Source: Escherichia coli (GTDB taxonomy: Bacteria; Pseudomonadota; Gammaproteobacteria; Enterobacterales; Enterobacteriaceae). Taken from it: a DNA stretch of 64,000 bases. Of the stretch, positions 30,871 through 57,003 are shown piece after piece. Each line of letters starts with the position of its first letter. Position 1 is the first letter of the stretch. Position numbers and translations under genes: made by a program. The notes under the pieces are model-generated. The model ran no database searches. It had not been told where the DNA came from and saw nothing but the letters and a program-made list of their open reading frames with translations. Location of the stretch: assembly GCF_009931435.1 (NCBI RefSeq), contig NZ_CP043414.1. One strand, written 5' to 3'.

Positions 30871-30994
30871 CATTTTTTAACTGTTCTACCAAAATTTGCG
30901 CTATCTCAATTTGGGCCAGGAAAGCATAACTTAGACTTTCAAGGTTAATTATTTTCCTGGTTTATATTTGTGAAGCATAACGGTGGAGTTAGTG

Positions 30995-31690
30995 ATGCTG
31001 AAGCGTTTCTTTATTACCGGTACAGACACTTCTGTAGGGAAAACGGTGGTTTCCCGCGCATTGCTACAAGCGTTAGCCTCCCAGGGAAAAACGGTTGCGG
31101 GATATAAACCCGTAGCGAAGGGGAGCAAAGAGACACCCGAAGGGCTGCGTAATAAAGATGCCCTGGTGTTGCAGAGTGTTTCAACCATCGAACTGCCTTA
31201 TGAAGCAGTTAATCCTATCGCGTTAAGCGAAGAAGAAAGTAGCGTGGCGCACAGTTGCCCAATCAATTACACCCTCATTTCAAACGGCCTGGCAAACCTG
31301 ACCGATAAAGTCGATCATGTGGTGGTCGAAGGTACTGGCGGTTGGCGCAGTCTGATGAATGATTTGCGTCCGCTCTCTGAATGGGTGGTGCAGGAACAAC
31401 TGCCGGTGTTGATGGTTGTCGGTATTCAGGAAGGTTGCATTAACCATGCACTGCTGACAGCTCAGGCGATTGCCAACGACGGGCTGCCGCTCATTGGCTG
31501 GGTGGCTAACCGAATCAACCCAGGACTGGCGCATTATGCGGAAATCATTGATGTGCTGGGTAAAAAACTTCCAGCACCGCTCATTGGTGAACTGCCTTAT
31601 TTACCGCGCGCCGAACAGCGTGAACTGGGGCAATACATCCGCTTAGCTATGCTGCGCAGTGTGCTGGCGGTAGATAGAGTCACGGTGTAA
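30995..31690 (+). CDS. ynfK: dethiobiotin synthetase paralog YnfK
   Basis: ORF 30983..31690; start at [17 protein letters not shown] (P-loop), 231 aa. Confidence 0.85.
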
Positions 31691-32899: not shown

Positions 32900-33092
32900 A
32901 GTGCGCAGATCCGGATAGCTGTGTAGATGGTGCATGAGCAGAAATGGACAATGAAACACGAGCGACTATTTTGCGGCAAAACAGGTTATCGGCAAAAGCA
33001 GTGCGTGCTTAAAGCGATAAAATACGTGACGTTGTAACGTATTATTGCCGAATAACGCGTGATTGTCGCCATCCGGCAATATTGCGGCAACT

Positions 33093-33707
33093 TTATCGAA
33101 ACAGTGGTTTAACCGCGACAGGAATCAACAGTTGTGATTGCCATTGCGCCAGCGTTAAGCGAGCCAGTTCACCCAGCGCACGGTAGAAAGGGTGTTCTGC
33201 TTTTTCGATAAAAACGTCGAGAAAACGTGTTGACCACGGAAAAAGATGCCATGCCAGCAATTCTTCGCATTCTGTCTGGCGACCATTCTCCGCCAACCAT
33301 GCAACCATCAACAGCAGTGAGCCAAAATGATCTTCCGGTTCATTTTGCTTCATTTCAAACTGAATGCCTTTCTCGCGCATCCACTGACGAAGTGCCAATG
33401 TTGAATCGCCAAACATCACAGATTCGCGATCCAGCCAGACAGATCCCCATGGAGGAGACGGCAGAGCCCACGGGCCGACAAATAGACGCTGCCAGGCCTG
33501 GGTTCGAGTCTCTTCACTCTGTGTTTGAAACGCCGTCACCAGCGGCGCTAATGACGCTTCTGGTAGAGGCCACTGAGTTTCCCAGCCGTCACTGGTGAGT
33601 ACCGCAACCAGAGGTGCGGCTTCTGCACTCTCTGGAGCGTAATAAAACAGCGCGCCCAACACGCGCGCCGCGACAGAAAAATTATCTTGCTGTGAAAAAT
33701 GGGTCAT
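33093..33707 (-). CDS. dmsD: Tat proofreading chaperone DmsD
   Basis: ORF 33093..33716; start at MTHFSQQDNF giving 204 aa. Confidence 0.9.
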   Translation of the reverse strand: MTHFSQQDNFSVAARVLGALFYYAPESAEAAPLVAVLTSDGWETQWPLPEASLAPLVTAFQTQSEETRTQAWQRLFVGPWALPSPPWGSVWLDRESVMFGDSTLALRQWMREKGIQFEMKQNEPEDHFGSLLLMVAWLAENGRQTECEELLAWHLFPWSTRFLDVFIEKAEHPFYRALGELARLTLAQWQSQLLIPVAVKPLFR

Positions 33708-33749
33708 TCCTAACATCCTGAAATGTGCGGGTTGCCCCGCACCAATTTG

Positions 33750-34604
33750 TTAACCTGCAATAGCCATTCCTACCGTCATGTGCAGGCCATAAAAGAGCAC
33801 ACGCCCGATCATCTCACCGCCAAGTATGAGGATTAGCCCCAGAATAAGTCCGGCAACGTGAGGTTCACGGCGACGAATGAGCGGACAAAGCCAGCATCCT
33901 AGACCTGCGCATAACAATACCACACGCCAGACCTGTAAGGAGGCGTAATCTGGTACCAGTGCGCTGGCTTGTTGTACGGATGAGTGAATAGACGCCAGAG
34001 ACAAACCTTGCAGCACAATCACCCCGGCACAAGCGATCAGCGCCAGAACGCTAATGATGGCAAATGGTGTGGTATTAAATGTAACGCGGGCTGCCCGCAG
34101 AATTGCGGCAGCAAGTATTGGACCGCTCAATAAAACTGTCAGGAAGAAAGCCAGCGTAGTGTAACCGTTATGCCAGGTTGGCACAGTGTCGATTTGATAC
34201 ACGCAGGTCATCATCCAGACGAAAATGACGCCGAGCGCCATGCTGACAAGTAACCAGAGTTTCCCCAGCGCTTGCGGCATTTTACCAATGACCGCCACCA
34301 GCCACCATAATCCGCCAACGGCAAAAAATATTGAACCGGCAGCAATCTCGTTACTCAGGCCGGAAGCTCCGATTCGATTCAGCGAGTTAAACGCCCGCAG
34401 TGGCGATCCCAGGTGCATGACAGAGGCAATAAACCCGATGCCCATCAGCAGCCAGAGGAAAAACATGCCACGGACAATACGCTGACGGTCTGCGTCATTT
34501 TTGCTGGCGAACCAGCCGATTCCGCTAATAATCAGCGCGCCTACGACGCATTGGCCCAATACGGTAAAGATAACCAGTGGCCATTCGTGCCATCCATTTC
34601 CCAT
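33750..34604 (-). CDS. ynfH: DMSO reductase-like membrane anchor subunit YnfH
   Basis: 284-aa polytopic ORF, DmsC paralog. Confidence 0.85.
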   Translation of the reverse strand: MGNGWHEWPLVIFTVLGQCVVGALIISGIGWFASKNDADRQRIVRGMFFLWLLMGIGFIASVMHLGSPLRAFNSLNRIGASGLSNEIAAGSIFFAVGGLWWLVAVIGKMPQALGKLWLLVSMALGVIFVWMMTCVYQIDTVPTWHNGYTTLAFFLTVLLSGPILAAAILRAARVTFNTTPFAIISVLALIACAGVIVLQGLSLASIHSSVQQASALVPDYASLQVWRVVLLCAGLGCWLCPLIRRREPHVAGLILGLILILGGEMIGRVLFYGLHMTVGMAIAG

Positions 34605-34605
34605 T

Positions 34606-35223
34606 TTAAACTTCCTCCGGATTAGCCAGGTAACCAGTGGTATCGCCGGTCGGGCGGCTGTTGGCGTTAGGTTTGATTACGATATTAGGTTTTGTAAAAT
34701 GCGCGCGCGGCAGTGGCGCGACGGCAGCCAGAGTACCGTGTTTCTGGCGCAGTTCTTCAATTGGACCGAATTCAAGTGCACGCAGCGGGCAGGATTCGAC
34801 ACATATGGGTTGTTTCCCCTCGGCGACGCGCGAATAACAACCATCGCACTTCGTCATGTGTCCTTTTTCAGCATTGTACTGTGGCGCGCCGTACGGACAG
34901 GCCATGTGGCAGTAGCGGCAGCCGATACAAACGTCTTCATCAACCACCACAAAGCCATCTTCACGCTTATGCATTGCGCCGCTGGGGCAGACTTTTGTAC
35001 ATGCGGGGTCATCGCAATGGTTACAGGAGATGGAGAGATAATAAGCGAACACGTTCTGGTGCCAGACGCCATTATCTTCCTGCCAGTCGCCGCCAGCGTA
35101 TTCATAAATACGGCGGAAACTGACTTCCGGGCCAAGATCTTTAAAATCTTTGCACGCCAGTTCGCAGGTTTTACAGCCAGTACAGCGGCTGGAATCGATA
35201 AAAAATCCATATTGTGTGGTCAT
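34606..35223 (-). CDS. ynfG: 4Fe-4S ferredoxin subunit YnfG (DmsB paralog)
   Basis: 205-aa ORF with four CxxCxxCxxxCP clusters. Confidence 0.9.
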   Translation of the reverse strand: MTTQYGFFIDSSRCTGCKTCELACKDFKDLGPEVSFRRIYEYAGGDWQEDNGVWHQNVFAYYLSISCNHCDDPACTKVCPSGAMHKREDGFVVVDEDVCIGCRYCHMACPYGAPQYNAEKGHMTKCDGCYSRVAEGKQPICVESCPLRALEFGPIEELRQKHGTLAAVAPLPRAHFTKPNIVIKPNANSRPTGDTTGYLANPEEV

Positions 35224-35233
35224 GGGCTACTCC

Positions 35234-37660
35234 TTAAACCTTTTCGATCTGGACGAGATTGCTGTGCGACGGGTTTCCCTTTGCCAGCGGTGAAGGGCGG
35301 TGAGAGGTCAGAATATTGATACTGCCGCCGTGATCGACCCGGTCACCAAACATATCCGCTTTAAGCCACGCACCTTGCCCGATGGCGGTAACGCCAGGCA
35401 GAATACGCGGAGTCACTTTTGCGGCAATCAGCATTTCTCCATTATTGTTAAATACCCGCACTGTATCGCCATGACGGATACCGCGTGCCTGAGCATCAAT
35501 GGGGTTGATCCACACCTCTTGTGGGCAGGCCTGCTGTAACACATCAATATTGCCGTAACTGGAGTGGGTACGCGCTTTGTAGTGGAAGCCCGTTAGCTGC
35601 AGTGGATAGGTTTTGCGCAGGGGATCGTCCCAGCCATCAAAACCTGGGGTATACGCAGGAAGGGGATGAATTATTTCATCTTTTTTCAATTCCCATGTGT
35701 CAGCAATCGTCGCCAGCCGTTCAGAATAAATTTCGATTTTCCCCGAAGGTGTTTTCAACGGGTTTGCCTGTGGATCTTCACGGAATGCGCGGAAAGCGAC
35801 GTAATGTTCTTCCGGGCATTTTTTCTTAAAGATCCCGGTCGTTTTCATCTCCTCGTAGTCCGGCATCTCAGGGTTACGTTCCTTCGTTTTCGCATGGAGA
35901 TATTTGATCCATTCATGCTGACTGCGACCTTCAGTAAAGGTTTGATAAACGTCTGGTCCTAAGCGTTTGGCGACTTCACTCAGCATCCAGTAGATGGGTT
36001 TGCGTTCAAATTTTGCTGAGGTTGCGGGTTGGGCGAGGATCACATAGCCCATATTCCCTGCAGATTCATGAGAGATAAGGTCTTCTTGCTCTGTTGGCAT
36101 CAGGTCGGGCAACAGGATATCGCAATACTTAGCCGAGGCCGTCATGAAGTGGTCAATGCCAACAATCATCTCGCACTTGCTGTCATCCTGAAGCACCTCA
36201 TGGGTGTGATTGATGTCGCCATGTTGATTGATCAATGTGTTACTGGCGTAGCACCATAAAAACTTGATTGGCACATCCAGTTTTTCTTTTCCACGAATAC
36301 CATCACGGGTCGCGGTCATTTCCGTACCGTGGTCGATGGCATCTGTCCATGTAAAGACGGAAATCTGCGTTTTAACAGGATTATCAAGCATCGGGAACCA
36401 TTCGACCCCCAGATCCCAGCTACCTTCGCGTACACCTGAGTTGCCGCCGTTTATGCCGACGTTACCGGTGAGAACGGAAAGCATGGCAATAGCGCGGGAC
36501 GTTTGCTCACCGTTGGAGTGTCGTTGTGGCCCCCAACCCTGACAAATATAAGCAGGTTTTGCGGAACCGATCTCTCGTGCCAACTGGATAATTTTTTCTT
36601 CCGGGATGCTGGTGATTTTTGCTGCCCATTCCGGCGTTTTAGCTATGCCGTCAGGCCCTTCGCCCAGAATATAGGCTTTATAATGCGCGTTACGTGGTGC
36701 GTTGGCGGGCAGCGTTTTTTCATCGTAACCAACACAATATTTGTCGAGAAATGGCTGATCGACCATGTTTTCCGTAATCAGTACCCAGGCAATCGCACAG
36801 GCCAGTGCGCCATCGGTGCCGGGGCGAATGGGCAGCCATTCATCTTCACGCCCGGCAGCTGTGTCGTTATAACGTGGATCAATGACGATCATGCGTGCGT
36901 TTGAACGTTCGCGGGCTTGCTCGACGTAGTAAGTGACACCACCGCCGCTCATCCGGGTTTCTGCCGGGTTATTTCCGAACATAACGACCAGCTTCGTATT
37001 GGCGATATCATCCGGACTGTTGCCATCATTGGCACCGAACATATAACTCATTGCGGCACTGATCTGTGCGGTACTGTAGCTGCCATAGCGACTGAGAAAA
37101 CCACCACAAGAGTTCATCAGACGGTACGGGACGTTTGAGTTGGTGATGTTTCCGCCATCTACGCCTGTTCCGTACAGGACATGTACAGCCTCATTGCCGT
37201 AATCTTTTAGGATCCGCCGAAGATTATCACTGATGGTATCCAGGGCTTCGTTCCAACTTATCCGTTCAAATTTACCTTCACCGCGCTTGCCGACGCGCTT
37301 CATGGGATATTTCAGCCGATCAGGATGATTCATCCGTCGGCGGATAGAGCGCCCGCGTAAACAGGCCCGAACCTGATGATTGCCGTAAACGTCGTCACCT
37401 GTCGTATCAGACTCCACCCAGTACACAGTGTCATCTTTCACATGCAAACGTAACAGACAGCGGCTCCCGCAGTTAACGGTGCAGGAACTCCAGACCGCTT
37501 TCTCTTCTACCGGAGCCTCTGCCGCTCGGACCATTTGGGAAAATGGCAGAGTGAAAGCACTGCTTGCCAGCGCGAGACTGCCAAGTGCGGAGGTTTTCAT
37601 CAGACTTCTACGGCTGATTTCAGCCTTCATGAGCGCCTCTGTGGTATGGATTTTCATCAT
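35234..37660 (-). CDS. ynfF: Tat-exported molybdoenzyme catalytic subunit YnfF (DmsA paralog)
   Basis: 807/808-aa ORF (two adjacent Met codons), twin-arginine motif SRRSLMK. Confidence 0.9.
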   Translation of the reverse strand: MMKIHTTEALMKAEISRRSLMKTSALGSLALASSAFTLPFSQMVRAAEAPVEEKAVWSSCTVNCGSRCLLRLHVKDDTVYWVESDTTGDDVYGNHQVRACLRGRSIRRRMNHPDRLKYPMKRVGKRGEGKFERISWNEALDTISDNLRRILKDYGNEAVHVLYGTGVDGGNITNSNVPYRLMNSCGGFLSRYGSYSTAQISAAMSYMFGANDGNSPDDIANTKLVVMFGNNPAETRMSGGGVTYYVEQARERSNARMIVIDPRYNDTAAGREDEWLPIRPGTDGALACAIAWVLITENMVDQPFLDKYCVGYDEKTLPANAPRNAHYKAYILGEGPDGIAKTPEWAAKITSIPEEKIIQLAREIGSAKPAYICQGWGPQRHSNGEQTSRAIAMLSVLTGNVGINGGNSGVREGSWDLGVEWFPMLDNPVKTQISVFTWTDAIDHGTEMTATRDGIRGKEKLDVPIKFLWCYASNTLINQHGDINHTHEVLQDDSKCEMIVGIDHFMTASAKYCDILLPDLMPTEQEDLISHESAGNMGYVILAQPATSAKFERKPIYWMLSEVAKRLGPDVYQTFTEGRSQHEWIKYLHAKTKERNPEMPDYEEMKTTGIFKKKCPEEHYVAFRAFREDPQANPLKTPSGKIEIYSERLATIADTWELKKDEIIHPLPAYTPGFDGWDDPLRKTYPLQLTGFHYKARTHSSYGNIDVLQQACPQEVWINPIDAQARGIRHGDTVRVFNNNGEMLIAAKVTPRILPGVTAIGQGAWLKADMFGDRVDHGGSINILTSHRPSPLAKGNPSHSNLVQIEKV

Positions 37661-37717
37661 TACTCACTTATTGCTTTTCAAACAAAATGTCATGCCAGAA
37701 TTTATGGTTGTAGTGGG

Positions 37718-40144
37718 TTATATTTTTTCGATCTCGACCAGATTAGTGTGCTGCGGGTTTCCCTTCGCCAGTGGTGAAGGGCGCAGAGTGGTTAGCGTAT
37801 TTACACAGCCGCCGTGGTCGATTTTATCGCCAGACATATTGGCCTCGTGCCAGGCTCCCTGGCCCATAGCGCTAACTCCAGGGAGAATGCGTGGTGTCAC
37901 TTTGGCTGGTAGCCGAACTTCGCCACGATGGTTAAACACCCGCACCATATCGCCGTTGGCAATCCCACGTTTCTGTGCATCTATAGGGTTGATCCACACT
38001 TCCTGACGGCAGGCTGCCTTCAGGACATCAATGTTGCCGTAGGTCGAGTGAGTACGGGATTTGTAATGGAAACCAAACAGTTGCAGTGGGAAGGTACTAC
38101 GTTCAGGGGAGTCCCAGCCTTCAAAGGTTGAGGCATAAACCGGCAGTGGGCTTATCACTTCATCTTTTTCCAGTTCCCAGGTACGGGCAATTTCCGCCAG
38201 CTTGCTGGAATAAATTTCAATCTTACCGGAAGGCGTTTTAAGTGGATTTGCCTCGGGGTCGTCACGAAATGCTTTGTAGGCGACAAAATGACCATTGGGA
38301 TCTTTACGCTTATAGATACCCATTTTTTTCAGTTCGTCGTAAGACGGTAACGCCGGATCTTTGGCAAGCATTTTGGCGTACAGATGTTGTAACCATTGTT
38401 CCTGGGTGCGACCTTCAGTGAACTTTTGATAGACGTCAGGTCCAAGACGATTCGCGACTTCACTCAGGATCCAGTAAATCGGTTTGCGTTCGAATTTTTC
38501 GCTGGTGACTGGCTGGAGGAAAATGAGATATCCCATGTTACCGGCGTAATCGTTAGGAATAATATCTTCCTGCTCAACGGTCATCAGGTCTGGCAGCAGA
38601 ATGTCGGCATATTTTGCCGATGAGGTCATAAAGTTTTCGATGACCACAATCATTTCGCATTTCGATTCGTCCTGCAGAATTTCATGCGTTTTGTTAATGT
38701 CAGAATGCTGATTAACCAAGGTATTTCCCGCGTAGTTCCAGATGAACTTAATGGGCACATCCAGTTTATCTTTGCCGCGGACGCCGTCGCGGATTGCCGT
38801 CATTTGCGGGCCATGATCGATAGCATCCGTCCAGCTGAAGCAGGAGATTGATGTTTTGACCGGATTATCCAGCACCGGCAGGCGTTCTATGGTAATGGTA
38901 TAGGTGGATTCACGCGCGCCACTATTTCCGCCGCTGATGCCGACATTGCCCGTCAGAATAGGCAACATCGCAATAGCGCGTGCGGTCAGCTCACCGTTTG
39001 CCTGGCGTTGCGGTCCCCAACCCTGGCAGATATAAGCGGGTTTTGCTGTGCCGATTTCACGCGCCAGTTTGATGATACGGTCCACCGGGATACCGGTAAT
39101 TTGCGAAGCCCACTGCGGCGTTTTCGCTGTGTTATCATCACCTTCACCAAGAATATAGGCTTTATAGTGACCATTTTTTGGTGCATCTGCGGGTAAGGTT
39201 TTTTCGTCATAGCCGACGCAGTATTTATCGAGAAAAGGTTGATCAACGAGATTTTCGTTAATCAATACCCAGGCAATACCCGCAACCAGCGCGGCATCGG
39301 TGCCCGGGCGAATAGGAAGCCATTCGTCTTCACGACCGGCAGCCGTATCGGTATATCGCGGATCGATAACAATCATTTTTGCGTTCGATTTCTCGCGCGC
39401 TTTTTCAAGAAGATAAGTGATGCCACCGCCGCTCATGCGGGTTTCTGCCGGGTTGTTACCAAACATCACGACCAGCTTGCTGTTTTCAATATCCGTGGTG
39501 CTGTTGCCATCATTACTGCCGTAGGTGTAGGGCATGGCACAGGAAATTTGCGCGGTGCTGTAGGAGCCATACTGATTGAGTGAACCGCCGTAGCAGTTCA
39601 TCAGGCGTTTGACCGCCGAGGCTGATGGTGAAGAGCGGGTCATATTGCCGCCAACAATCCCCGAAGAGTACTGAATATATACAGCCTCATTGCCATATTG
39701 TTCGACGGTTTTTTTCAGGCTACTGGCGATAGTATCCAGGGCTTCATCCCAGCTAATCCGTTCGAATTTGCCTTCGCCGCGTTTGCCCACGCGTTTCATT
39801 GGGTAATTCAAGCGATCGGGATGATTAATACGCCGACGGATGGACCGACCGCGCAAACAGGCGCGTACTTGATGATTGCCATACTCGTCGCTGCCGGTGT
39901 TGTCAGTTTCCACCCAGGTGACTTCATTATCTTTAACATGTAGACGAAGTGCACAGCGGCTACCACAGTTGACGGAACAGGCACCCCAGACCACTTTTTC
40001 GCTGGCCTGTTGTACCGCTGCCGCTGCACTGCGCAGGGTGAACGGTAAAGAAAAACCGCCTGCAGCCAGCGCCAGAGAACCTATCGCGGTAGATTTAACG
40101 AGTGTTCTGCGGCTGATGCCCACCATTTGTTCATTTTTGGACAT
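37718..40144 (-). CDS. ynfE: Tat-exported selenate/DMSO reductase catalytic subunit YnfE
   Basis: 808-aa ORF, twin-arginine motif SRRTLVK, paralog of ynfF. Confidence 0.9.
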   Translation of the reverse strand: MSKNEQMVGISRRTLVKSTAIGSLALAAGGFSLPFTLRSAAAAVQQASEKVVWGACSVNCGSRCALRLHVKDNEVTWVETDNTGSDEYGNHQVRACLRGRSIRRRINHPDRLNYPMKRVGKRGEGKFERISWDEALDTIASSLKKTVEQYGNEAVYIQYSSGIVGGNMTRSSPSASAVKRLMNCYGGSLNQYGSYSTAQISCAMPYTYGSNDGNSTTDIENSKLVVMFGNNPAETRMSGGGITYLLEKAREKSNAKMIVIDPRYTDTAAGREDEWLPIRPGTDAALVAGIAWVLINENLVDQPFLDKYCVGYDEKTLPADAPKNGHYKAYILGEGDDNTAKTPQWASQITGIPVDRIIKLAREIGTAKPAYICQGWGPQRQANGELTARAIAMLPILTGNVGISGGNSGARESTYTITIERLPVLDNPVKTSISCFSWTDAIDHGPQMTAIRDGVRGKDKLDVPIKFIWNYAGNTLVNQHSDINKTHEILQDESKCEMIVVIENFMTSSAKYADILLPDLMTVEQEDIIPNDYAGNMGYLIFLQPVTSEKFERKPIYWILSEVANRLGPDVYQKFTEGRTQEQWLQHLYAKMLAKDPALPSYDELKKMGIYKRKDPNGHFVAYKAFRDDPEANPLKTPSGKIEIYSSKLAEIARTWELEKDEVISPLPVYASTFEGWDSPERSTFPLQLFGFHYKSRTHSTYGNIDVLKAACRQEVWINPIDAQKRGIANGDMVRVFNHRGEVRLPAKVTPRILPGVSAMGQGAWHEANMSGDKIDHGGCVNTLTTLRPSPLAKGNPQHTNLVEIEKI

Positions 40145-40243
40145 AACTCACTCCCTGTTCTTTATCGTTATATAAAAGTTTATATATTGAATATTTAGCG
40201 CGCTAACAATAGAGGGAGTCTACCCATTTTGGGTTAAGAATTA

Positions 40244-40257
40244 TTAATGCATATCAA
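40244..40257 (-). promoter_or_regulatory. FNR-like binding site upstream of ynfE
   Basis: TTAAT-GCAT-ATCAA, one mismatch to TTGAT-N4-ATCAA, about 100 bp upstream of ynfE start. Confidence 0.35.
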
Positions 40258-40342
40258 TAGAAGGGTATGAGTAATAAGGCGGGATTATGTTGTATGTTCA
40301 TATCGCCGGACCTGTTGAATCCGGCGTTTAGTCAATAATGTG

Positions 40343-40648
40343 TTACTGCGGTTCGGCAGGCGCGCCATCCTGAGTAGACTGCGCGGGGGCAGAGACATTA
40401 CCGCTGGTGGTGCGGGTGTAAAGAATTTTATGCGTATCATTGGCGCAATGCCCGACGACCTGGGAATCAGGCTGATCAACCTGGTCATTGGGTACAATAC
40501 TTAACGTGAAGCTGCTTTCGGGTACGCCATTATTGATAATGCGCTGTGATATATCGCTCTGTATGCGCTCACAGGAAACCGGCACGGCGAGTACCGCGGG
40601 TGAGGTGAGTGCGAGCAGAAGCGCGGCACAGCAAGTTGAGAGTTTCAT
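40343..40648 (-). CDS. ynfD: DUF1161 secreted protein YnfD
   Basis: ORF 40343..40690; start at MKLSTCCAALLLA (101 aa) with signal peptide. Confidence 0.8.
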   Translation of the reverse strand: MKLSTCCAALLLALTSPAVLAVPVSCERIQSDISQRIINNGVPESSFTLSIVPNDQVDQPDSQVVGHCANDTHKILYTRTTSGNVSAPAQSTQDGAPAEPQ

Positions 40649-40755
40649 CATAAGCTCCTTACGCGAATATAACTTCTTTAAGCATAGCATTTAACGTGTA
40701 AAGTACTGTATTTGCTACTATGATTGAGAATCATCTCTACTGTCTGGTGACTGTT

Positions 40756-43071: not shown

Positions 43072-44286
43072 ATGAAGATCGTAAAGGCTGAAGTTTTTGT
43101 TACCTGTCCGGGGCGTAATTTCGTCACATTAAAAATCACCACTGAGGACGGTATTACGGGCCTTGGGGATGCCACCCTCAATGGACGTGAGCTTTCCGTG
43201 GCCTCTTATTTGCAGGATCACCTTTGTCCGCAGCTTATTGGTCGCGATGCACAGCGTATCGAAGATATCTGGCAGTTTTTCTATAAAGGTGCTTACTGGC
43301 GTCGCGGTCCGGTGACGATGTCGGCCATTTCAGCGGTTGATATGGCGCTGTGGGATATTAAAGCCAAAGCTGCCAACATGCCGCTTTACCAGTTACTCGG
43401 CGGCGCGTCTCGTGAAGGGGTGATGGTTTATTGCCATACCACCGGTCACAGTATTGATGAAGCTCTGGATGATTATGCCCGTCATCAGGAGCTGGGATTC
43501 AAAGCCATCCGCGTGCAGTGCGGAATCCCTGGTATGAAAACCACCTACGGCATGTCGAAAGGCAAAGGTCTGGCTTATGAACCCGCAACCAAAGGACAGT
43601 GGCCGGAAGAGCAGCTGTGGTCGACGGAGAAATACCTCGATTTCATGCCGAAATTGTTTGACGCGGTACGTAACAAGTTTGGTTTTAATGAACATTTGCT
43701 GCATGACATGCACCATCGCTTAACGCCTATTGAAGCGGCGCGCTTTGGTAAAAGCATTGAAGATTATCGCATGTTCTGGATGGAAGACCCGACGCCTGCG
43801 GAAAACCAGGAATGCTTCCGCCTGATTCGCCAACACACCGTCACGCCAATTGCAGTGGGTGAAGTCTTCAACAGCATCTGGGACTGCAAACAGCTGATTG
43901 AAGAACAACTTATCGACTATATCCGCACCACGCTGACTCACGCGGGGGGGATTACCGGTATGCGCCGGATTGCCGATTTTGCTTCGTTGTATCAGGTACG
44001 TACTGGCTCACACGGTCCTTCCGATTTGTCACCAGTCTGCATGGCTGCGGCGCTGCACTTTGATCTGTGGGTCCCCAATTTCGGTGTCCAGGAATACATG
44101 GGCTATTCCGAACAAATGCTCGAAGTCTTCCCGCACAACTGGACTTTCGATAACGGCTATATGCATCCGGGAGACAAACCGGGTCTTGGCATCGAATTCG
44201 ATGAAAAGCTGGCGGCGAAATATCCCTATGAACCTGCTTATCTGCCAGTCGCACGTCTGGAAGATGGCACGCTGTGGAACTGGTAA
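43072..44286 (+). CDS. rspA: starvation-sensing protein RspA (enolase superfamily, mannonate dehydratase-like)
   Basis: ORF 43039..44286; start at [10 protein letters not shown] giving 404 aa. Confidence 0.9.
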
Positions 44287-44297
44287 GGAGTAAGATA

Positions 44298-45317
44298 ATG
44301 AAAAGCATTTTAATTGAAAAACCGAATCAACTGGCAATTATCGAACGCGAAATACCCACCCCGTCAGCGGGTGAAGTTCGAGTAAAAGTGAAACTTGCCG
44401 GAATTTGTGGTTCAGATAGCCATATTTATCGTGGGCATAATCCTTTTGCGAAATATCCGCGCGTCATTGGACATGAATTCTTTGGCGTCATTGATGCAGT
44501 GGGTGAAGGCGTGGAAAGCGACAGAGTCGGTGAACGCGTTGCTGTCGATCCGGTGGTCAGCTGTGGGCATTGCTATCCGTGCTCTATAGGTAAGCCGAAC
44601 GTTTGTACGACACTGGCTGTATTAGGTGTGCACGCTGACGGTGGTTTCAGTGAATATGCCGTGGTGCCGGCAAAAAATGCGTGGAAAATTCCTGAAGCAG
44701 TGGCCGATCAATATGCGGTGATGATCGAACCTTTTACCATTGCGGCTAACGTTACCGGTCATGGTCAACCGACTGAAAATGATACCGTTCTGGTTTACGG
44801 TGCAGGTCCAATCGGCCTGACGATCGTTCAGGTATTAAAAGGCGTCTATAACGTTAAGAATGTGATTGTTGCCGATCGCATTGATGAACGACTGGAAAAA
44901 GCGAAAGAGAGCGGGGCAGACTGGGCGATTAATAACAGCCAGACACCGCTTGGCGAGATTTTCGCTGAAAAAGGCATAAAGCCGACATTAATTATCGATG
45001 CGGCTTGTCATCCTTCAATCCTGAAAGAAGCCGTAACGCTGGCTTCTCCAGCGGCACGTATTGTATTGATGGGCTTCTCCAGTGAACCGTCTGAAGTGAT
45101 TCAGCAAGGAATTACCGGAAAAGAACTCTCTATTTTCTCTTCACGCTTAAATGCAAATAAATTCCCGGTCGTTATCGACTGGTTAAGTAAAGGGTTAATT
45201 AAACCAGAAAAACTAATTACCCATACGTTTGATTTCCAGCATGTTGCTGATGCCATTAGTTTATTTGAACAGGATCAAAAGCATTGCTGCAAAGTCTTAC
45301 TCACTTTTTCTGAATAA
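44298..45317 (+). CDS. rspB: starvation-sensing protein RspB (Zn-dependent alcohol dehydrogenase family)
   Basis: ORF 44274..45317; start at MKSILIEKPN giving 339 aa; GHEFFG and CGxCxxC zinc motifs. Confidence 0.9.
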   Translation: MKSILIEKPNQLAIIEREIPTPSAGEVRVKVKLAGICGSDSHIYRGHNPFAKYPRVIGHEFFGVIDAVGEGVESDRVGERVAVDPVVSCGHCYPCSIGKPNVCTTLAVLGVHADGGFSEYAVVPAKNAWKIPEAVADQYAVMIEPFTIAANVTGHGQPTENDTVLVYGAGPIGLTIVQVLKGVYNVKNVIVADRIDERLEKAKESGADWAINNSQTPLGEIFAEKGIKPTLIIDAACHPSILKEAVTLASPAARIVLMGFSSEPSEVIQQGITGKELSIFSSRLNANKFPVVIDWLSKGLIKPEKLITHTFDFQHVADAISLFEQDQKHCCKVLLTFSE

Positions 45318-45374
45318 TACCAATAACGGCGAGTAAGTAGTACGCATCTTACCTCTTTTTTAGAGATAACCATT

Positions 45375-45467
45375 ATGACAATAGAAAAACACGAAAGAAG
45401 CACTAAGGATTTGGTGAAAGCAGCAGTATCGGGATGGCTGGGCACTGCGCTTGAATTTATGGATTTC
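45375..45467 (+). pseudogene. ydfJ: 5' fragment (31 codons) of ydfJ-like MFS metabolite:H+ symporter gene, truncated by prophage insertion
   Basis: ATG at 45375 gives MTIEKHERSTKDLVKAAVSGWLGTALEFMDF (the G-x-x-LEW/F-DF motif preceding TM1 of MHS transporters), then diverges and stops after 11 codons beside the integrase gene. Confidence 0.5.
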
Positions 45468-45504
45468 AAGAGTCATACGTGTCAACTATTTGATAAATAT
45501 TAAA

Positions 45505-46800
45505 TTAATTTTTCATTGCTTCGTTATGGGGCATGGTTGGGGCAAACTCGCTTAACTGTGTATTTAACAAAGCTACCTGTGCATTATTGTTTTCAGACAT
45601 CCATTTTCCGTATACCTGAAATACCATTTGCGCATCTGCATGGCCCATCTGGTTTGCTATAAATGCTGGGTTAGCACCAGCTGTCAGCGACCAGCAGGCA
45701 TAAGTATGTCTCGACTGATATGATTTTCGATGGCGGAGTCCGGCACGTTTTATCGCTGCGTCCCACATCTGCCTTATTGAGTCAACGGTAAAATGGTCAC
45801 CATAATTTTTTACTCTCGCTGACACTTCAGGTTGAAAAACAAAGGTGCATTTATGTTTTTCTGTTCTGCCATACTCTCTGAGGTGAACATCAATGATATG
45901 CTCTTTGCTCAGTCTCGTTAATGTCATCTGACTCCGGAGAGCGTCGATTGCTGGCTTAATAAGATGAATGACCCGATTGGTTCCCGCCTGTGTTTTTGGT
46001 ACCGTGAAACGGTCTTTTGCTAAATTTCTCCTGATCATCATTGTTCCATTTTTCAGATCTATGTCCTCCCATCCAAGTGCACACAGCTCACCAGGGCGAA
46101 CGCCAGTATAAACAGAAACACACCATAAATTTTTGGCTTGCTGATTTCTGCACGCATCGATAAGACGGATGAATTCCTCCCGCGAAAGAGGATCCGGAAT
46201 GGTTCTTGATTCCTTTAATGGCGAGATCCCCTTAAACGGGTTATCTGCCAGGTAACCGTTATCAACACCAAACTGGAACACGGCGTTAAGATTTGTCATG
46301 TAATTATTTACAGTTACAGCCGATCTCCCTGGTTGTGTAACAATATAGTTACTTTTGGGGATCTGGTATCCAGTCAGTAGCTCTTTACGAACCTCCAGTA
46401 ATTTTTCTTTATTAATCGATGAGGCAAGATTTTTTTCACCGATTATGCTCAGGATATTTTTGATGACGGCACGGTATGTGTTGAGTGATGTTTTTGCGAC
46501 TTCAGTTTCTTTCAGTGCCAGAAATTTTTCAGCCAGTTCTTTTATGGTTAAATCTTGTCGGGCCTCACCAAATTTTTCCAGATTGCGTGAGGAGGGAAAC
46601 TGTTTTGCATAGTCGAAAACACCAGTTTTTATTGCGTAACAAACAGAGGCGCGTAGCTCACCTGCAACGCGCCTGTTTTTTGCTGTGTCAGGAACCCCCA
46701 GGTTTTCCCTGACTCTTACGCCTTTATAAACAAACCAGATACGTAATTTCCCTCCATGGTTTTCCACGCCTGTCGGATATTTCATTTCAACTTCTCTCAT
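45505..46800 (-). CDS. int: tyrosine site-specific integrase
   Basis: 431-aa ORF (start possibly at second Met, 46785); C-terminal RHRKSYQSRHTYAC...VYGKW tyrosine recombinase motifs. Confidence 0.9.
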   Translation of the reverse strand: MREVEMKYPTGVENHGGKLRIWFVYKGVRVRENLGVPDTAKNRRVAGELRASVCYAIKTGVFDYAKQFPSSRNLEKFGEARQDLTIKELAEKFLALKETEVAKTSLNTYRAVIKNILSIIGEKNLASSINKEKLLEVRKELLTGYQIPKSNYIVTQPGRSAVTVNNYMTNLNAVFQFGVDNGYLADNPFKGISPLKESRTIPDPLSREEFIRLIDACRNQQAKNLWCVSVYTGVRPGELCALGWEDIDLKNGTMMIRRNLAKDRFTVPKTQAGTNRVIHLIKPAIDALRSQMTLTRLSKEHIIDVHLREYGRTEKHKCTFVFQPEVSARVKNYGDHFTVDSIRQMWDAAIKRAGLRHRKSYQSRHTYACWSLTAGANPAFIANQMGHADAQMVFQVYGKWMSENNNAQVALLNTQLSEFAPTMPHNEAMKN

Positions 46801-46819
46801 TAGTTAGTGTGGCTTTTAG

Positions 46820-47071
46820 TCAAGTAAGATGACGTCTTGGTCTTGCTGATGCCTGGCGCTCAATCCAGCGATCAATTTCTTCCAGGTTGTAAAAGCATGG
46901 ACTGTTATCCCATGGCATACCGTCATGAGCGACATGCTTATATTCCCTTCCTTCCATAAACGATTTTTCCCGGGCCTTTTTTAACGTACCTTTTTTTATT
47001 CCTTTCAGCGCAATTAACTGCTCTTCGGATACCCATTTGCCGGGAGAGACAATCATGATTACTTCGCTCAT
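46820..47071 (-). CDS. xis: lambda Xis-like excisionase
   Basis: 83-aa ORF directly upstream of int; shares the GREY core with lambda Xis. Confidence 0.65.
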   Translation of the reverse strand: MSEVIMIVSPGKWVSEEQLIALKGIKKGTLKKAREKSFMEGREYKHVAHDGMPWDNSPCFYNLEEIDRWIERQASARPRRHLT

Positions 47072-47143
47072 CGATTTCTTTATCTCTTACATCAGACGAG
47101 CGCCGGTTGCAGAATACCAGTCACAACCGGCGACAGTTGAACA

Positions 47144-49615
47144 TTAAGAATCAGCCTGACTCGGGATCAGTTTTTGCCAGATAGCTGAAACGCATTTTGC
47201 CTGGTAACGGGCGTCATCAAGTGCATTATGGCGCTCACCTTCGAATGGAATAGCCGTTCTGGCATCGAAGTCTATGGCTTTCCCCAGCTCAACGATTGTG
47301 CGTACATCGCGATCGTTGTAGTAACGCCACGGGCAGGGGATCCCCTGCCGTTCGTATGAACGGCGCAAAATCGTGTTGTCGAAGTTGGCTCCATTTCCCC
47401 AGACCTGAACAAAAAATTCACCGGAGTTTTCGTCGATAAATTCCCGCAATTGTAACAGTGCATCATCTAACGGGATTTCATCGGTCATAATGGCAGATTG
47501 CGCTTCGCGTGATTGTTTAAGCCACCATTTAATGGTGTCCCGATCAATGACTCCGCCAGCAGTTTCCAGATCGATAGTCTTACTAAATTCCGGTCCCATA
47601 TCTCCGGTTTGCGGATCGAAAAATATTGCACCTATTGAGATAATCGGGGCATCGGGATTTTTTCCCATGGTTTCAAGGTCGATCATCAGATGAATCCCCG
47701 CTCTGCTGGTGGATGTGAGATTATGATGACCGTTCGCCTTAATTAAGGGATCTGACGCCTCGCCAGTTTCACTATCGCTGGCATGATGCTGATTGCCGCC
47801 AGTGTTCTCCTTGTGCTGATGCGCAGTGCCTTCCATTTCCTCCGGATCATTTTCCTGAACTTCAGGCTGATTCTCTCCATCGAATATTTCCTGGTATGTT
47901 GCGTCACCCATCACCGCACCACAATCAGGGCAGTTGCCGCCACCGCTATGACCGCAGGCGGTGCAGATCTTTTCCGGTTCCTGTTGCACTACTGGTTCAG
48001 GTTGTTTCGTTTCTGGCTCGTTTTGTTGCGTATTTGGGCTGTTTTGTTCCGCTTTCTGGTCGTTCTGTTCCGTTTCTTGCTGGTTCTGGTTCACAGAATC
48101 GCGGGTCTGGATCCCCTTAACCCATTTCGGATCATTCGGGTCGCTAATCCCTTCAACAAATTCACCACGTGATACTGCAAGCAGTTCATCGGCGTCAGGC
48201 TGGCTGATATTGGCTGCCTGCATAATTTTGTTTACTTCGTCAGCGGTAACTTTTACTGACCCTGGTTGTGCGGTCGTGTCAGATGCACCAGTATTTTGTT
48301 GTGAACCTGAGTATGTACCGTTTTTGCGGGCGAAATATTCTTCTTTCGTGATTTCAGTAGCCCCAGCAGACAGCGCCTTATCCAGACCAGAAAGTTTGTT
48401 TGCGCGACCGTATTTTTCGCCATCCTTGTCGGTGAAGAGGAAGTAGAACGGCCCCTCACGTTCTACAGATGGTTCGACTTCCACTTTGCATTCGGTTTTT
48501 TCGTTGTCTGGAATTGCCGTTTCCACTGCATCAGTTTCTGGTACTGGCGACGAGAGAGTATCAGTTGCGCTCTGATTTGTTCCTTCATCTTCAAACACGC
48601 CCTTTGTAGTCAGGTATTCAGTAATGTATTTGTTCAGTGCCACAGGGTCTTTGTGAATGTCGATCGGACGTTCACGGACAAGGCCAAAAATAGTCTGGCG
48701 GTCGTAGCGAAGGGCATCAGGCTGTTTGCGCATTGATGCCGAGATACGCTTCCAGTCTTCGCGGTCGTTGTCGATAACTTCATTTTTTGCCCAGCGATGG
48801 ATGCTGCCGTCAATGTTTCCGGCATCTACATCACCAGGCCAGAGAGCGTAGGCCAGTTCGTCATCCAGTGTTTTCCATGTCTGCTTGTATTCGCGATGAA
48901 TGGCAGCAATGACCGGGTTGATTTTTCCTGTTGAATTTTCAGTGTGCTGTTGATTGGCTCTGGCGCGGGCGAGATCAACAACAGACGTGTATTTTCCGGC
49001 TTCCTTGCGTTCACCTTCGCGACGTTTTTTCCAGATGCGCATCTCTGCCTGAATTTCGGGCCATTTGGCACCAGGCTTACATTTATGCTTAACCCACCCG
49101 ATGGCATGCAGCTTAAGCTCCGGATACATAGCGTTAACTTCTGGCATTTTCATCAACGCTTCAACGATATGGCCGTCGAATGTTGCCATGTCTTCCTGCA
49201 ACAATTCCTGTGCGCTAATCACCATATCAACAGTGATGTTTTCACATGTGTGGAACTTAACCATGACAGCGTTCTGTACTTCAGGGGCTAGGTTGTCAAA
49301 AGTGACGTTCATCGGATCGGATTCAGTCTCGACCGGGACAAAGGAAGCAGACGCCTCATCCCAGCGGTTTTCCTGCATATATTCAGCATCCCAGGAATCG
49401 AGGGCAGGGCGGGGTATACCGGGTTTATCCTCGCAAACAAGAAATTTATAAGCGCAGTCCTGAGCAGCCGGATAATGTTCCAGGAATTGCCAGTGAAATT
49501 TTGCGCGGGCGCGACGTTCATCACCGGCTTCAATGGCAGTGGCTACAGCGACGGCACCTTCTTCCTTTATTGCCTGTTCGTCCGGAATGGCGGCGCAAAT
49601 AAAGACTTTACTCAT
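47144..49615 (-). CDS. prophage exonuclease with C-terminal DEDDh 3'-5' exonuclease domain
   Basis: 823-aa ORF; MIDLETMG (Exo I), WGNGANFD (Exo II), H-x4-D (Exo III); CTACG...CPDCG zinc knuckle; Q/E/N-rich linker. Confidence 0.8.
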   Translation of the reverse strand: MSKVFICAAIPDEQAIKEEGAVAVATAIEAGDERRARAKFHWQFLEHYPAAQDCAYKFLVCEDKPGIPRPALDSWDAEYMQENRWDEASASFVPVETESDPMNVTFDNLAPEVQNAVMVKFHTCENITVDMVISAQELLQEDMATFDGHIVEALMKMPEVNAMYPELKLHAIGWVKHKCKPGAKWPEIQAEMRIWKKRREGERKEAGKYTSVVDLARARANQQHTENSTGKINPVIAAIHREYKQTWKTLDDELAYALWPGDVDAGNIDGSIHRWAKNEVIDNDREDWKRISASMRKQPDALRYDRQTIFGLVRERPIDIHKDPVALNKYITEYLTTKGVFEDEGTNQSATDTLSSPVPETDAVETAIPDNEKTECKVEVEPSVEREGPFYFLFTDKDGEKYGRANKLSGLDKALSAGATEITKEEYFARKNGTYSGSQQNTGASDTTAQPGSVKVTADEVNKIMQAANISQPDADELLAVSRGEFVEGISDPNDPKWVKGIQTRDSVNQNQQETEQNDQKAEQNSPNTQQNEPETKQPEPVVQQEPEKICTACGHSGGGNCPDCGAVMGDATYQEIFDGENQPEVQENDPEEMEGTAHQHKENTGGNQHHASDSETGEASDPLIKANGHHNLTSTSRAGIHLMIDLETMGKNPDAPIISIGAIFFDPQTGDMGPEFSKTIDLETAGGVIDRDTIKWWLKQSREAQSAIMTDEIPLDDALLQLREFIDENSGEFFVQVWGNGANFDNTILRRSYERQGIPCPWRYYNDRDVRTIVELGKAIDFDARTAIPFEGERHNALDDARYQAKCVSAIWQKLIPSQADS

Positions 49616-49707
49616 TTTGTTTTACCTCATTACAGATTTAAGGGTGAACAAATCCCTGCCATTGCTGGCATATAAGAATGAAATCGGATGTTTATTACGG
49701 AACTGTT

Positions 49708-49899
49708 TTAAAGACCTGCCGGGATTTCGTTATTATCCTGGTGAATAACTTTATCGACCGGGTAACAGTTACCGGGAATTTTCTGTTCGGTTGCTGCAGT
49801 CACACACTCCTGCATTGTCCTGTGAACACTGACTGCAATATCAACTGGCTCTCCGGAAACAAGAAAAACTGTCAGAACAAGTGCAAATGCTGTATTCAT
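49708..49899 (-). CDS. ydfD: small lysis-inducing protein YdfD-like
   Basis: 63-aa ORF from MNTAFALVLTVFL (hydrophobic N-terminus); start overlaps dicB stop in ATGA. Confidence 0.6.
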   Translation of the reverse strand: MNTAFALVLTVFLVSGEPVDIAVSVHRTMQECVTAATEQKIPGNCYPVDKVIHQDNNEIPAGL

Positions 49900-50084
49900 T
49901 GCCAGCATCCTTTTTGTATCGGACGTAAACGGGCCAACATTGAAAGAATGCATATTTTATTTAATAGCTCCCGTTCGTGTTTTCTCTTGTTAATGGCATC
50001 TTCAGTAAATACAGGGTTACTGATAGTGACACCAATTTCAAAACAACCTTCAGACGTATTAACGTTTGGTAATAACGTTTCCAT
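49896..50084 (-). CDS. dicB: cell-division inhibitor DicB
   Basis: 62-aa ORF METLLPNVNTSEGCFEIGVTISNPVFTEDAINKRK..., recognised DicB. Confidence 0.85.
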   Translation of the reverse strand: METLLPNVNTSEGCFEIGVTISNPVFTEDAINKRKHERELLNKICILSMLARLRPIQKGCWQ

Positions 50085-50255
50085 TATCGCGTCCTCAACA
50101 ATGAATTTTGTGATGCGGTGCCTGGTGCTTCCAGGTGACGTTAACCAGTTAACAATTAACGCCGGATACAGAGAATCCACCCATAACACTGTTTTTGGTT
50201 TTAACTGTTCCGCGTGCGCTCAGCCGCATTCACCGCATCACAAAATTCACTTTAA

Positions 50256-50311
50256 AAAGGGCGGCAGAGCAGTCACGGAGTAAAACTGATACCGCCAAAC
50301 GTCACCAGAAA
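50256..50311 (-). ncRNA. dicF: DicF small regulatory RNA
   Basis: Minus strand reads TTTCTGGTGACGTTTGGCGGTATCAGTTTTACTCCGTGACTGCTCTGCCGCCC plus T-run, matching DicF as recalled; about 170 nt upstream of dicB. Confidence 0.75.
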
Positions 50312-50652
50312 ATTGATAACAGAGGGCGTTGCAGCGGGGTTGTCACTTAAGCGTATGGTCAACCTGACAACCCGGTGTCCTCAACGGGGGAAGGAATAAC
50401 CCCGCCATACTTACCGCCGCGCCATTTCGCGGATTGCCACAACCGGAAGCGCACGGTCGACGAAAATTTAACGACAGGCTATCTATGAACCAGCTACCTC
50501 GCCGTGCGCTTTCGCGTTATGGTCTGACTTTTCAGGGAAATATCCTTTCAGTAAACTGTCAGTGCCGGATGCTCACCCGTGTCCGGCGCAAGCACTCCAC
50601 CTTACCCGTGGAGAACTCCTTAATTACCAACCTTAGCTTCGTTGGTTAGCTA

Positions 50653-50871
50653 TTAACGCGGGTATGTAATCATTCTGGCAATGGTTAATGCCGCTGCTTT
50701 TTCCAGATTGGTGATATCCTGCTCCAGAGAGGACAGATTTTCAGCCTGCTTAGCCCTGACTTCATTAGCCCATTTCAGATCCTGCGCTGCATTAATTTTC
50801 TGGTGCATCCACTCATAAAGTTCATCATTGGTATAGTCTGGCGCGATGATGACGGGTTCTCGTTTCTGCAT
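50653..50871 (-). CDS. ydfC: YdfC-like prophage protein
   Basis: 72-aa ORF in the dicB operon position. Confidence 0.6.
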   Translation of the reverse strand: MQKREPVIIAPDYTNDELYEWMHQKINAAQDLKWANEVRAKQAENLSSLEQDITNLEKAAALTIARMITYPR

Positions 50872-50900
50872 ACTGATTCCTCGCGGTGCTGTTTCGCTTA

Positions 50901-51029
50901 TCAGCCATTAGATTTTGCCGAACTGGAAAGCGCCTGTTTAAATTCGTTGAAGCTGTGAGCTTCTTCGCCTTCGGCAAGGCCTTCGAAGTATTCTTCGTAA
51001 GCCTTTTCCATGATTGTGTCGAAATCCAT
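50901..51029 (-). CDS. ydfB: YdfB-like small acidic protein
   Basis: 42-codon ORF (MDFDTIMEKAYEEYFEGLAEG...) found by manual translation; below ORF-track cutoff. Confidence 0.5.
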   Translation of the reverse strand: MDFDTIMEKAYEEYFEGLAEGEEAHSFNEFKQALSSSAKSNG

Positions 51030-51030
51030 A

Positions 51031-51186
51031 TCACCCACCTGAATTTCTTTCCAGCCAGCGACGCGCTCCAGATTCGGTTTTAAACGTTTTGCTTTTGGTA
51101 TACGTCATTGCGGTGAACGTACCGTCCTGGTTGGGGAACACGCCACATACCAGAGATTCGCTGTTGCCAAGATTGATAGTATCCAT
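51031..51186 (-). CDS. ydfA: YdfA-like prophage protein
   Basis: 51-aa ORF from MDTINLGNSESLVCGVF; first gene downstream of the repressor. Confidence 0.6.
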   Translation of the reverse strand: MDTINLGNSESLVCGVFPNQDGTFTAMTYTKSKTFKTESGARRWLERNSGG

Positions 51187-51451
51187 GCTGACCTCATTTC
51201 CCCTTAACGCCGGGGTAGCGGAACAAAAACCTGCTGCATAGTTATTAAAGTTGTACCCTGCCGTCATGTTCTTACGCCTCGGGCTGGCTACTTAACCCCT
51301 GACCACTGCCTGGTAACTCGAAGTATTGCCCTGCATTCTGTGGAGCGGGGTGAGTTGGTATGAAAAGAAGGATACCCATAGGTATTTAAAAAGTAAATAC
51401 CCATGGGTGACTTTTTGCAGTGTCTTAACTGGTGACTAGTTGTTTGGTGAG

Positions 51452-51871
51452 CTATGATGCGTTTTGTGCTTTCTTTTTACGGATTTCTTCGTAGATCATA
51501 TTGTAATACTGTTTTTTCTCTTCAAGAGTTTTTAATAAGTTATCCGCTTCACTTTCTGGCAGTTCGTCTAAGAGATCTAAAAAAATACGTTGTCGTGGCG
51601 TTAGAACCCTTGTTTCATAACTGGAGGCTGTGTTCGTTGATGATGAAACGATACCATCCATCCATCCCCGGGGTAACCCAAAGGACTCTTCGATAATCTC
51701 CACCATATCATCAGCGATCCGTTTTTTTCCCTTTTTCCCCTCTGGGTACAACATTCTTGATACATAAGAAGGCTCGCGCCCGATCTTTCTGGCCACGTTA
51801 ACCGCTTTACCATCGCATTTCTCATCACGAATTTTGATGAGTTGCTGTCGTCTAAATTCATATTTGTCCAT
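51452..51871 (-). CDS. prophage repressor, DicA-like C-terminal domain with distinct N-terminal HTH
   Basis: 139-aa ORF; HTH-like VARKIGREPSYVSRM; C-terminal LDLLDELPESEADNLL resembles DicA; no SD before ATG. Confidence 0.7.
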   Translation of the reverse strand: MDKYEFRRQQLIKIRDEKCDGKAVNVARKIGREPSYVSRMLYPEGKKGKKRIADDMVEIIEESFGLPRGWMDGIVSSSTNTASSYETRVLTPRQRIFLDLLDELPESEADNLLKTLEEKKQYYNMIYEEIRKKKAQNAS

Positions 51872-51971
51872 AGGTAAATAATAGATGCGATTACTGCAAG
51901 GTAAACAACCTGTGGGTATTGACTTTTGTTTACCTGTAGGTATTCTTTGCTGTGTTTACTAAGGAGTAGCT
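51872..51971. promoter_or_regulatory. divergent promoter/operator region of the immunity switch
   Basis: AGGTAAATAA (51873), AGGTAAACAA (51899) and inverted TTGTTTACCT (51927) repeats around TTGACT; AAGGAG RBS for cro-like gene. Confidence 0.5.
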
Positions 51972-52253
51972 ATGGAAGAATTAAGAATATTTCTCAATTC
52001 TCTTTCGTCAGATGAACAGCGTATGTTTGCATGCGAGTGTGGTACCAGCATCGGTTATCTAAGAAAGGCATTGAGTAAAGGTCAAGTGTTAGGGGCATCG
52101 TTATGTGTCCTTATTGAGCGAGCCAGTAATGGTGAAGTTACACGTCAGCAACTAAGGCCTTTTGATTGGATGAATATTTGGCCCGAGCTGGAAGATACCA
52201 AAACGTTAACACAACCACTTTCTAGGAGCTTGATTCATGAAAATCAAGCATGA
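51972..52253 (+). CDS. Cro/YdaS-like HTH regulator
   Basis: 93-aa ORF divergent from repressor with AAGGAG RBS. Confidence 0.65.
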   Translation: MEELRIFLNSLSSDEQRMFACECGTSIGYLRKALSKGQVLGASLCVLIERASNGEVTRQQLRPFDWMNIWPELEDTKTLTQPLSRSLIHENQA

Positions 52254-52662: not shown

Positions 52663-52733
52663 GTGATAATAGCCATATCGAATCGCTTCCGGCAACTCGT
52701 GAGTAAAAAGATTCGGTATCAGAAGAGGTGAGT

Positions 52734-53804: not shown

Positions 53805-53844
53805 GTGTTAATTTCTGGTCATGAGGTAATTTTCAGGAGGGCTT

Positions 53845-54270: not shown

Positions 54271-54497
54271 ATTAAAGGGCATTAGTTCAGATATGCATTG
54301 ACATTTTCATGGCACAAGGTAGAGCTAGCGTGGTTGTTCGCTTTGTGCCAAGAGTGGTCATTGATAATATTTTGGTGGGTTACATCTGTCAATGTTTCAG
54401 GTGATATGATATACAAATAGCCAGACTTAGACTGGCATGCTGTTTATTTTTATATTATGGGTGTGCCACATGGATTTAAAACTTATTGAGATATGAC

Positions 54498-57002: not shown

Positions 57003-57003
57003 C

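Follow-up and report, generated by a model that had tools for sequence, protein, structure and literature searches.

The region analysed here, part of a window of 64,000 nucleotides of Escherichia coli DNA, almost certainly represents ynfEFGH-dmsD, the much-studied selenate reductase operon of E. coli, lying on the minus strand and served by a single FNR-dependent class II promoter. The identities of the genes, the paralogy of the two catalytic genes, the protein motifs, and the sequence, conservation and orthology of the FNR site were all obtained directly from the window and from its comparison with other genomes, and they are described below together with earlier findings in E. coli K-12 and Salmonella.

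The list of open reading frames contains two minus-strand ORFs of 808 codons each, at 37718–40144 and 35234–37660, arranged head-to-tail and 57 nt apart, with three further minus-strand ORFs next in line (34606–35223, 33750–34604 and 33093–33716). The first of the two long ORFs is ynfE (37718–40144), encoding a Tat-exported molybdopterin catalytic subunit of 808 aa, which scored 1796.2 bits against the NCBIfam model NF041885, above the cut-off of 1675. The second is ynfF (35234–37660), encoding the paralogous catalytic subunit, which scored 1771.2 bits against NF041884 (cut-off 1650), an assignment shared by Pfam domains, motifs and RefSeq synteny; its product has 808 aa when read from the first ATG, and in RefSeq it is annotated with 807 aa, the start being the second ATG at 37657. 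The intergenic spacer between them (37661–37717, minus strand) holds the ynfF ribosome-binding region AGTGAGTAATG, the corresponding region before ynfE being AGTGAGTTATG.

Downstream of this pair lie ynfG (34606–35223), encoding the iron-sulfur electron-transfer subunit of 205 aa (TIGR02951, 264.8 bits; Fer4_11 and cysteine groups), ynfH (33750–34604), encoding the membrane anchor and quinol-oxidising subunit of 284 aa (PF04976 DmsC, 427 bits over the full length; RefSeq annotation), and dmsD, also called ynfI (33093–33707), encoding the Tat-signal-binding proofreading chaperone of 204 aa (NF008632, 342 bits; PF02613; RefSeq annotation), all on the minus strand. The gene order is therefore of the A-A-B-C-chaperone kind, B being a four-cluster Fe-S subunit, C a DmsC-type anchor and the chaperone DmsD. 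An earlier note on this DNA had described two paralogous 2.4-kb ORFs lying head-to-tail, named them ynfE and ynfF, and placed ynfG, ynfH and dmsD after them; these statements agree with the ORF list, with the two catalytic models whose cut-offs are passed, with the NCBIfam and Pfam matches, and with the way in which syntenic loci of other E. coli genomes are annotated in RefSeq. The note gave no strand for the operon, which is the minus strand, and its two coordinates coincide with the ynfF stop codon (35234) and with the outer end of the FNR-like site (40257).

A megablast of positions 33000–40750 against 5426 complete E. coli genomes detected the locus in 5418 of them, where its genes are annotated as ynfE, ynfF, ynfG, ynfH and dmsD. 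Its neighbours follow the order mlc, a bioD paralogue and clcB on one side of dmsD-ynfHGFE, and ynfD, ynfC, speG, ynfB, ynfA and rspA on the other, which is also the order in K-12 b1581-b1594. A search of the whole 64-kb window against Rfam returned no RNA family within or near the operon.

The proteins carry the features expected from these assignments. Both catalytic subunits had been described in the earlier note as having twin-arginine signals, and such motifs were located: YnfE has SRRTLVK at residue 11 and YnfF has SRRSLMK at residue 16, with a hydrophobic h-region after each. Both contain the cysteine group of the FS0 [4Fe-4S] cluster (C-x3-C-x3-C...C, here CxVNCGSRC...C) as well as the Fe4S4, molybdopterin and dinucleotide-binding domains (PF04879, PF00384 and PF01568), and YnfG has 16 cysteines arranged as four ferredoxin-type groups. 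A search of the PDB yielded no structure for any DmsA/YnfE-type subunit, the nearest being the soluble Rhodobacter DMSO reductases and the TMAO reductases.

Aligned along their full length, YnfE and YnfF are 71% identical (566/801, BLASTP E = 0), and in a codon alignment the two genes share 70% of their DNA positions and 47% of third positions, so that the low identity named in advance as grounds for rejecting their paralogy was not observed. The longest identical run between them is 17 nt, no 90-nt window is more than 81% identical, and a search for conversion tracts between the two genes found none and gave no sign of recent gene conversion. This is the pattern of an old duplication whose synonymous sites are saturated. 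The YnfE/YnfF pair of Salmonella is 71% identical as well, which makes the duplication older than the split between Escherichia and Salmonella. Compared with K-12, ynfE differs by 10 amino acids (dN/dS 0.059) and ynfF by 5 (dN/dS 0.033), the YnfG protein is identical, and dN/dS lies between 0.03 and 0.08 across all five operon genes; both catalytic copies are thus under strong purifying selection.

Three other readings of the genes themselves have to be weighed against these data. A case for the DMSO reductase operon dmsABC in place of ynf could be made from the high scores of the two catalytic proteins against the DmsA model NF011566 (1343 and 1315 bits) and against the shared subfamily model TIGR02166, but both NF011566 scores fall short of the DmsA cut-off of 1600, whereas the cut-offs of the YnfE and YnfF models are exceeded. 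Each of the two proteins also lies under the cut-off of the other and passes only its own model, and they are therefore to be regarded as two distinct paralogues, neither of which is dmsA. With two A subunits and a linked dmsD at the locus, and with ynfD, ynfC, speG and clcB as neighbours just as around K-12 b1587-b1591, we give the dmsABC assignment practically no credence. Equally little credence is due to the idea that the tandem pair arose by a recent duplication, or that its similarity is upheld by ongoing gene conversion: the same-strand tandem arrangement, the equal ORF lengths and the similar ribosome-binding regions would suit it, but the low nucleotide and third-position identity, the short identical runs and the lack of any highly similar window do not, and neither does the equal divergence of the Salmonella pair. 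That one of the paralogues is a redundant copy on its way to becoming a pseudogene is very slightly more plausible but still extremely improbable; the literature reports that Salmonella YnfF adds little to selenate reduction, but in the window both ORFs are intact and of full length, pass their own NCBIfam cut-offs and keep all motifs, and their low dN/dS values against K-12 speak against decay in either gene. The reading of the locus as ynfEFGH-dmsD, with two anciently duplicated and maintained catalytic genes, is the one followed here.

Upstream of ynfE, the earlier note had reported a TTAAT-N4-ATCAA string at a distance of about 100 bp, and this string is indeed present on the plus strand at 40244–40257 as TTAATGCATATCAA, its centre being 106 bp upstream of the ynfE ATG (40144). 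On the coding (minus) strand it is TTGATatgcATTAA, which in the direction of transcription is TTGAT-atgc-ATTAA, a 9/10 match to TTGAT-N4-ATCAA with one perfect half-site and one mismatch to ATCAA in the other. With up to one mismatch allowed, the bare FNR pattern occurs 8 times in the 64-kb window against 3.5 expected, which is not significant alone, and the consensus count was replaced by a symmetric position weight matrix (PWM) built from Table S6 of Myers et al. 2013, using the 62 ChIP-bound FNR sites other than this one. With this matrix the ynfE site scores 12.1–12.3 bits, within the lowest 5% of the 62 bound sites, whose minimum is 11.5, and it ranks fifth in the 64 kb, where about 1.5 equally good sites are expected by chance. 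Four sites in the window score equally well or better, and two of these, inside uidA and pntA, are listed as unbound in Table S6. By score alone the site is marginal; its significance is owed to where it lies and to the fact that its orthologue is a proven site.

The orthologous K-12 site, found by alignment to that of the window, is TTGATatggATTAA, equivalent to TTGATATGGATTAA. In the latter form it is listed by Myers et al. 2013 (Table S6, position 1655980), under an FNR ChIP-seq peak, with a PatSer score of 13.01 bits and a ln p of -11.5 that passes the threshold of -10.75; the motif scoring proposed in the earlier note has thus a clear outcome for the K-12 orthologue, above the published threshold, and a marginal one for the window itself. 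In the same study ynfEFGH-dmsD is placed in Category 1, the operons under direct activation by FNR, and its site at -40.5, and the supplementary tables give fnr-/WT expression ratios of 0.026–0.027 for ynfE, ynfF and ynfG (approximately 37-fold fnr-dependent) and an anaerobic increase in sigma-70 occupancy from 27 to 709. Work with ynfE promoter reporters has reproduced anaerobic activation and nitrate repression, Xu et al. 2009 being cited for FNR and NarL. K-12, TUM2826, ST95-32 and 2020CK-00188 show no variation in either FNR half-site, in the -10 region or in the leader, while the intergenic DNA further upstream varies. The window site is the orthologue of the ChIP-bound K-12 site, and binding of FNR to it in this strain is predicted.

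The remaining promoter elements, all on the minus strand, were read from the sequence and are correspondingly provisional. A probable -10 hexamer, TAGACT, matching TATAAT at 4 of 6 positions, lies at 40217–40222, and from it and the published location of the FNR site at -40.5 we infer a transcription start at an A at 40210, leaving a 66-nt leader up to the ynfE ATG; with the start placed there, the centre of the FNR site falls at -40.5, in agreement with the K-12 value. A scan for consensus sigma-70 promoters detected none at the ynfE promoter, and no -35 match was seen there, which is not counted against the promoter because class II activator-dependent promoters are expected to lack a -35 element. 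Two candidate NarL heptamers are conserved in the aligned strains: TACTCAT (40267–40273), a perfect TACYYMT match lying directly upstream of the FNR site, and the inverted ATGGGTA (40221–40227), whose reverse complement TACCCAT is a perfect match to TACYYMT and which overlaps the -10 hexamer, where it may play a regulatory role. Papers that cite Xu et al. 2009 report repression of the ynfE promoter by nitrate and NarL.

Could the TTAAT-N4-ATCAA string nevertheless be a chance match with no regulatory role? The excess of pattern matches in the window is small (8 against 3.5), the fifth rank in the PWM scan compares with 1.5 expected, and sites of equal or better score in uidA and pntA are unbound in K-12, all of which would fit such an explanation. 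Against it stand the FNR ChIP-seq peak over the K-12 orthologue and the strong fnr dependence of the operon there, the intergenic position of the site at class II distance from a -10-like hexamer, and the invariance of both half-sites across divergent E. coli lineages in which nearby intergenic bases vary. We consider a chance match highly unlikely, if somewhat less so than the alternatives concerning the genes, and retain the interpretation of the string as the FNR site of the operon.

Against the K-12 operon (b1587-b1591, a putative selenate/tellurate reductase operon), gene order, gene lengths and neighbours are the same, the DNA is 97.3% identical over 14 kb, and there are 0–10 protein differences per gene with a synonymous divergence (dS) of 0.08–0.15 and no functional difference evident. 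Over the stretch that runs from the FNR site to the ATG, the promoter differs by a single spacer base within the FNR site, at 40249, which is C in the window and G in K-12 and all four other strains aligned. None of the 5293 complete E. coli genomes with a match there carries an exact copy of the 58-nt stretch that includes this C. Since the change costs only about 0.6 bits in the PWM, it is probably neutral. The best identity of the operon segment to other genomes (98.5%) is lower than that of the flanking segments (99.1% and 99.7%), which suggests a locally divergent ynf allele; that this allele and the private G-to-C change in the spacer alter the level of expression is a smaller possibility.

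With the E. coli DmsABC enzyme the ynf products share a Tat-exported Mo-bisPGD subunit with FS0, a four-cluster Fe-S subunit, a DmsC-type anchor, the chaperone DmsD and, by prediction, class II activation by FNR (Myers 2013), and the ynf locus is a paralogue of dmsABC. It differs from the latter in having a tandem catalytic pair and in carrying dmsD, in the scores of YnfE and YnfF below the DmsA-specific cut-off, and in its reported activity, which is the reduction of selenate and tellurate whereas that of DmsABC is respiratory growth on DMSO. The selenate reductase of Salmonella enterica is encoded by the same ynfEFGH-dmsD operon in another genus, with the 71% identical YnfE/YnfF pair noted above and signal peptides that are bound by DmsD.

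Taken together with published work, these features would allow the following mechanism. Under anoxia, [4Fe-4S]-FNR dimers would bind TTGATatgcATTAA (40257–40244), centred at about -40.5, and bring RNA polymerase to a promoter with a weak -10 (TAGACT) and no -35, and in the presence of nitrate phospho-NarL would shut this promoter off. The leftward transcript of the minus strand would encode YnfE and YnfF, two Tat-exported catalytic subunits carrying a molybdo-bis(pyranopterin guanine dinucleotide) cofactor, along with the shared four-cluster Fe-S subunit YnfG, the shared menaquinol-oxidising anchor YnfH and the chaperone DmsD. Until the cofactor has been fully loaded, DmsD would keep hold of the twin-arginine signal peptides of YnfE, YnfF and DmsA; the YnfE and YnfF precursors would then be exported together with YnfG and dock on YnfH, the assembled enzyme facing the periplasm. 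The YnfG clusters would relay electrons from quinol to the molybdenum centre, where selenate, tellurate and some S- and N-oxides may be reduced. The two catalytic genes arose by tandem duplication before the Escherichia-Salmonella split, and purifying selection has kept both since.

Several of these steps are carried over from other strains. That DmsD binds the signal peptides of YnfE and YnfF is described in the Salmonella literature, as is selenate reduction; the selenate/tellurate reductase activity comes from genetics in K-12 and Salmonella and is attributed to the proteins of the window by analogy, and the naming of the genes as a selenate/tellurate reductase is backed by that literature. 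FNR occupancy, fnr dependence and NarL repression are likewise predicted for this strain from work on K-12 and Salmonella.

The operon, the paralogy of its catalytic genes, Tat/DmsD-dependent maturation and control of the promoter by FNR and NarL have all been published already for K-12 and Salmonella. The window shows the K-12 operon in a different E. coli background, with all of its sequence-testable defining features present; it adds nothing new and carries little weight as a discovery, and the question of what YnfF is for is no more testable through this window than before. One tentative idea, which we regard as possible but less likely to be right than wrong, is that YnfE and YnfF are non-redundant and act as alternative catalytic heads that compete for a common YnfGH electron-transfer module, with YnfF serving a distinct physiological substrate. 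If true, this would explain why both genes have been under strong purifying selection since before the split of Escherichia and Salmonella, despite the small role of YnfF in the reduction of selenate.

The selenate reductase operon ynfEFGH-dmsD lies on the minus strand in a segment (33000-40750) that is at most 98.5% identical to any complete E. coli genome, while the flanking segments compared with it (1-25000 and 44000-64000) reach 99.1% and 99.7%. By these figures this genome seems to carry a locally divergent ynf allele, which may have come in by recombination. A lambdoid, Qin-like prophage occupies 44000-64000 and matches prophages of STEC strains at 99.7% identity; it carries DicF RNA (50259-50310, minus strand) and, on the plus strand, a sok antitoxin RNA (55941-56115) together with two cspA-type 5' leaders (59593-59985 and 62496-62881).

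Within the ynfE promoter, the FNR site (40244-40257, minus strand) has C on the coding strand at spacer position 40249, where K-12 and all four other aligned strains have G, and none of the 5293 matching complete E. coli genomes contains the surrounding 58 nt unchanged (best match 98.3%). The change is probably neutral, because it costs about 0.6 bits on the FNR matrix. In E. coli 2022S01-140-18 (L005:1-2604, NZ_CM125663.1), an ISEcp1 transposase and blaCTX-M-15 sit directly within the ynfE promoter; similarity to the window begins there at about 40248, which means that the TTGAT upstream half of the FNR site has been replaced by the ISEcp1 end, and the ynf operon of this strain is probably ISEcp1-driven or uncoupled from FNR. 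Between ynfD and the ynfE promoter, just past the ynfD stop codon, a hairpin (CGCCGGA-loop-TCCGGCG, 40304-40326, minus strand) keeps its stem and has a different loop in each aligned strain, and most of the 5-7% divergence seen across the ynfD-ynfE intergenic region is due to this loop. A canonical intrinsic terminator was rejected, as no T run follows the hairpin.

At the start of ynfF there are two adjacent ATG codons (37657-37660). The ribosome-binding region AGTGAGTAATG resembles AGTGAGTTATG ahead of ynfE, a parallel by which the ynfE start aligns with the first of the two ATGs (808 aa); the RefSeq start is the second (807 aa). A PDB search with YnfE (37718-40144, minus strand) found no membrane-bound DmsA/YnfE-type subunit among solved structures; the nearest chains were those of the soluble DMSO reductase from Rhodobacter (1eu1, E = 4e-76) and of TMAO reductases.

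A weak FNR-like site (TTGCGCTATCTCAA, 30896-30909, 9.9 bits on the FNR matrix) was located about 90 bp upstream of ynfK/bidA, a bioD paralogue (30995-31690, plus strand). Since K-12 ynfK has an fnr-/WT expression ratio of 0.06 and a listed ChIP peak whose best site has ln p -9.37 (Myers et al. 2013), the window may hold a second FNR-activated promoter at this point. Expression of dmsD (ynfI) in K-12, with a ratio of 0.19, is far less fnr-dependent than that of ynfEFG (0.027). These ratios are compatible with an internal, FNR-independent promoter, for which a promoter-like match within ynfH, upstream of dmsD (CTGACA-17-AATACT, 34114-34142, minus strand), would fit, and which would feed DmsD for DmsA maturation.
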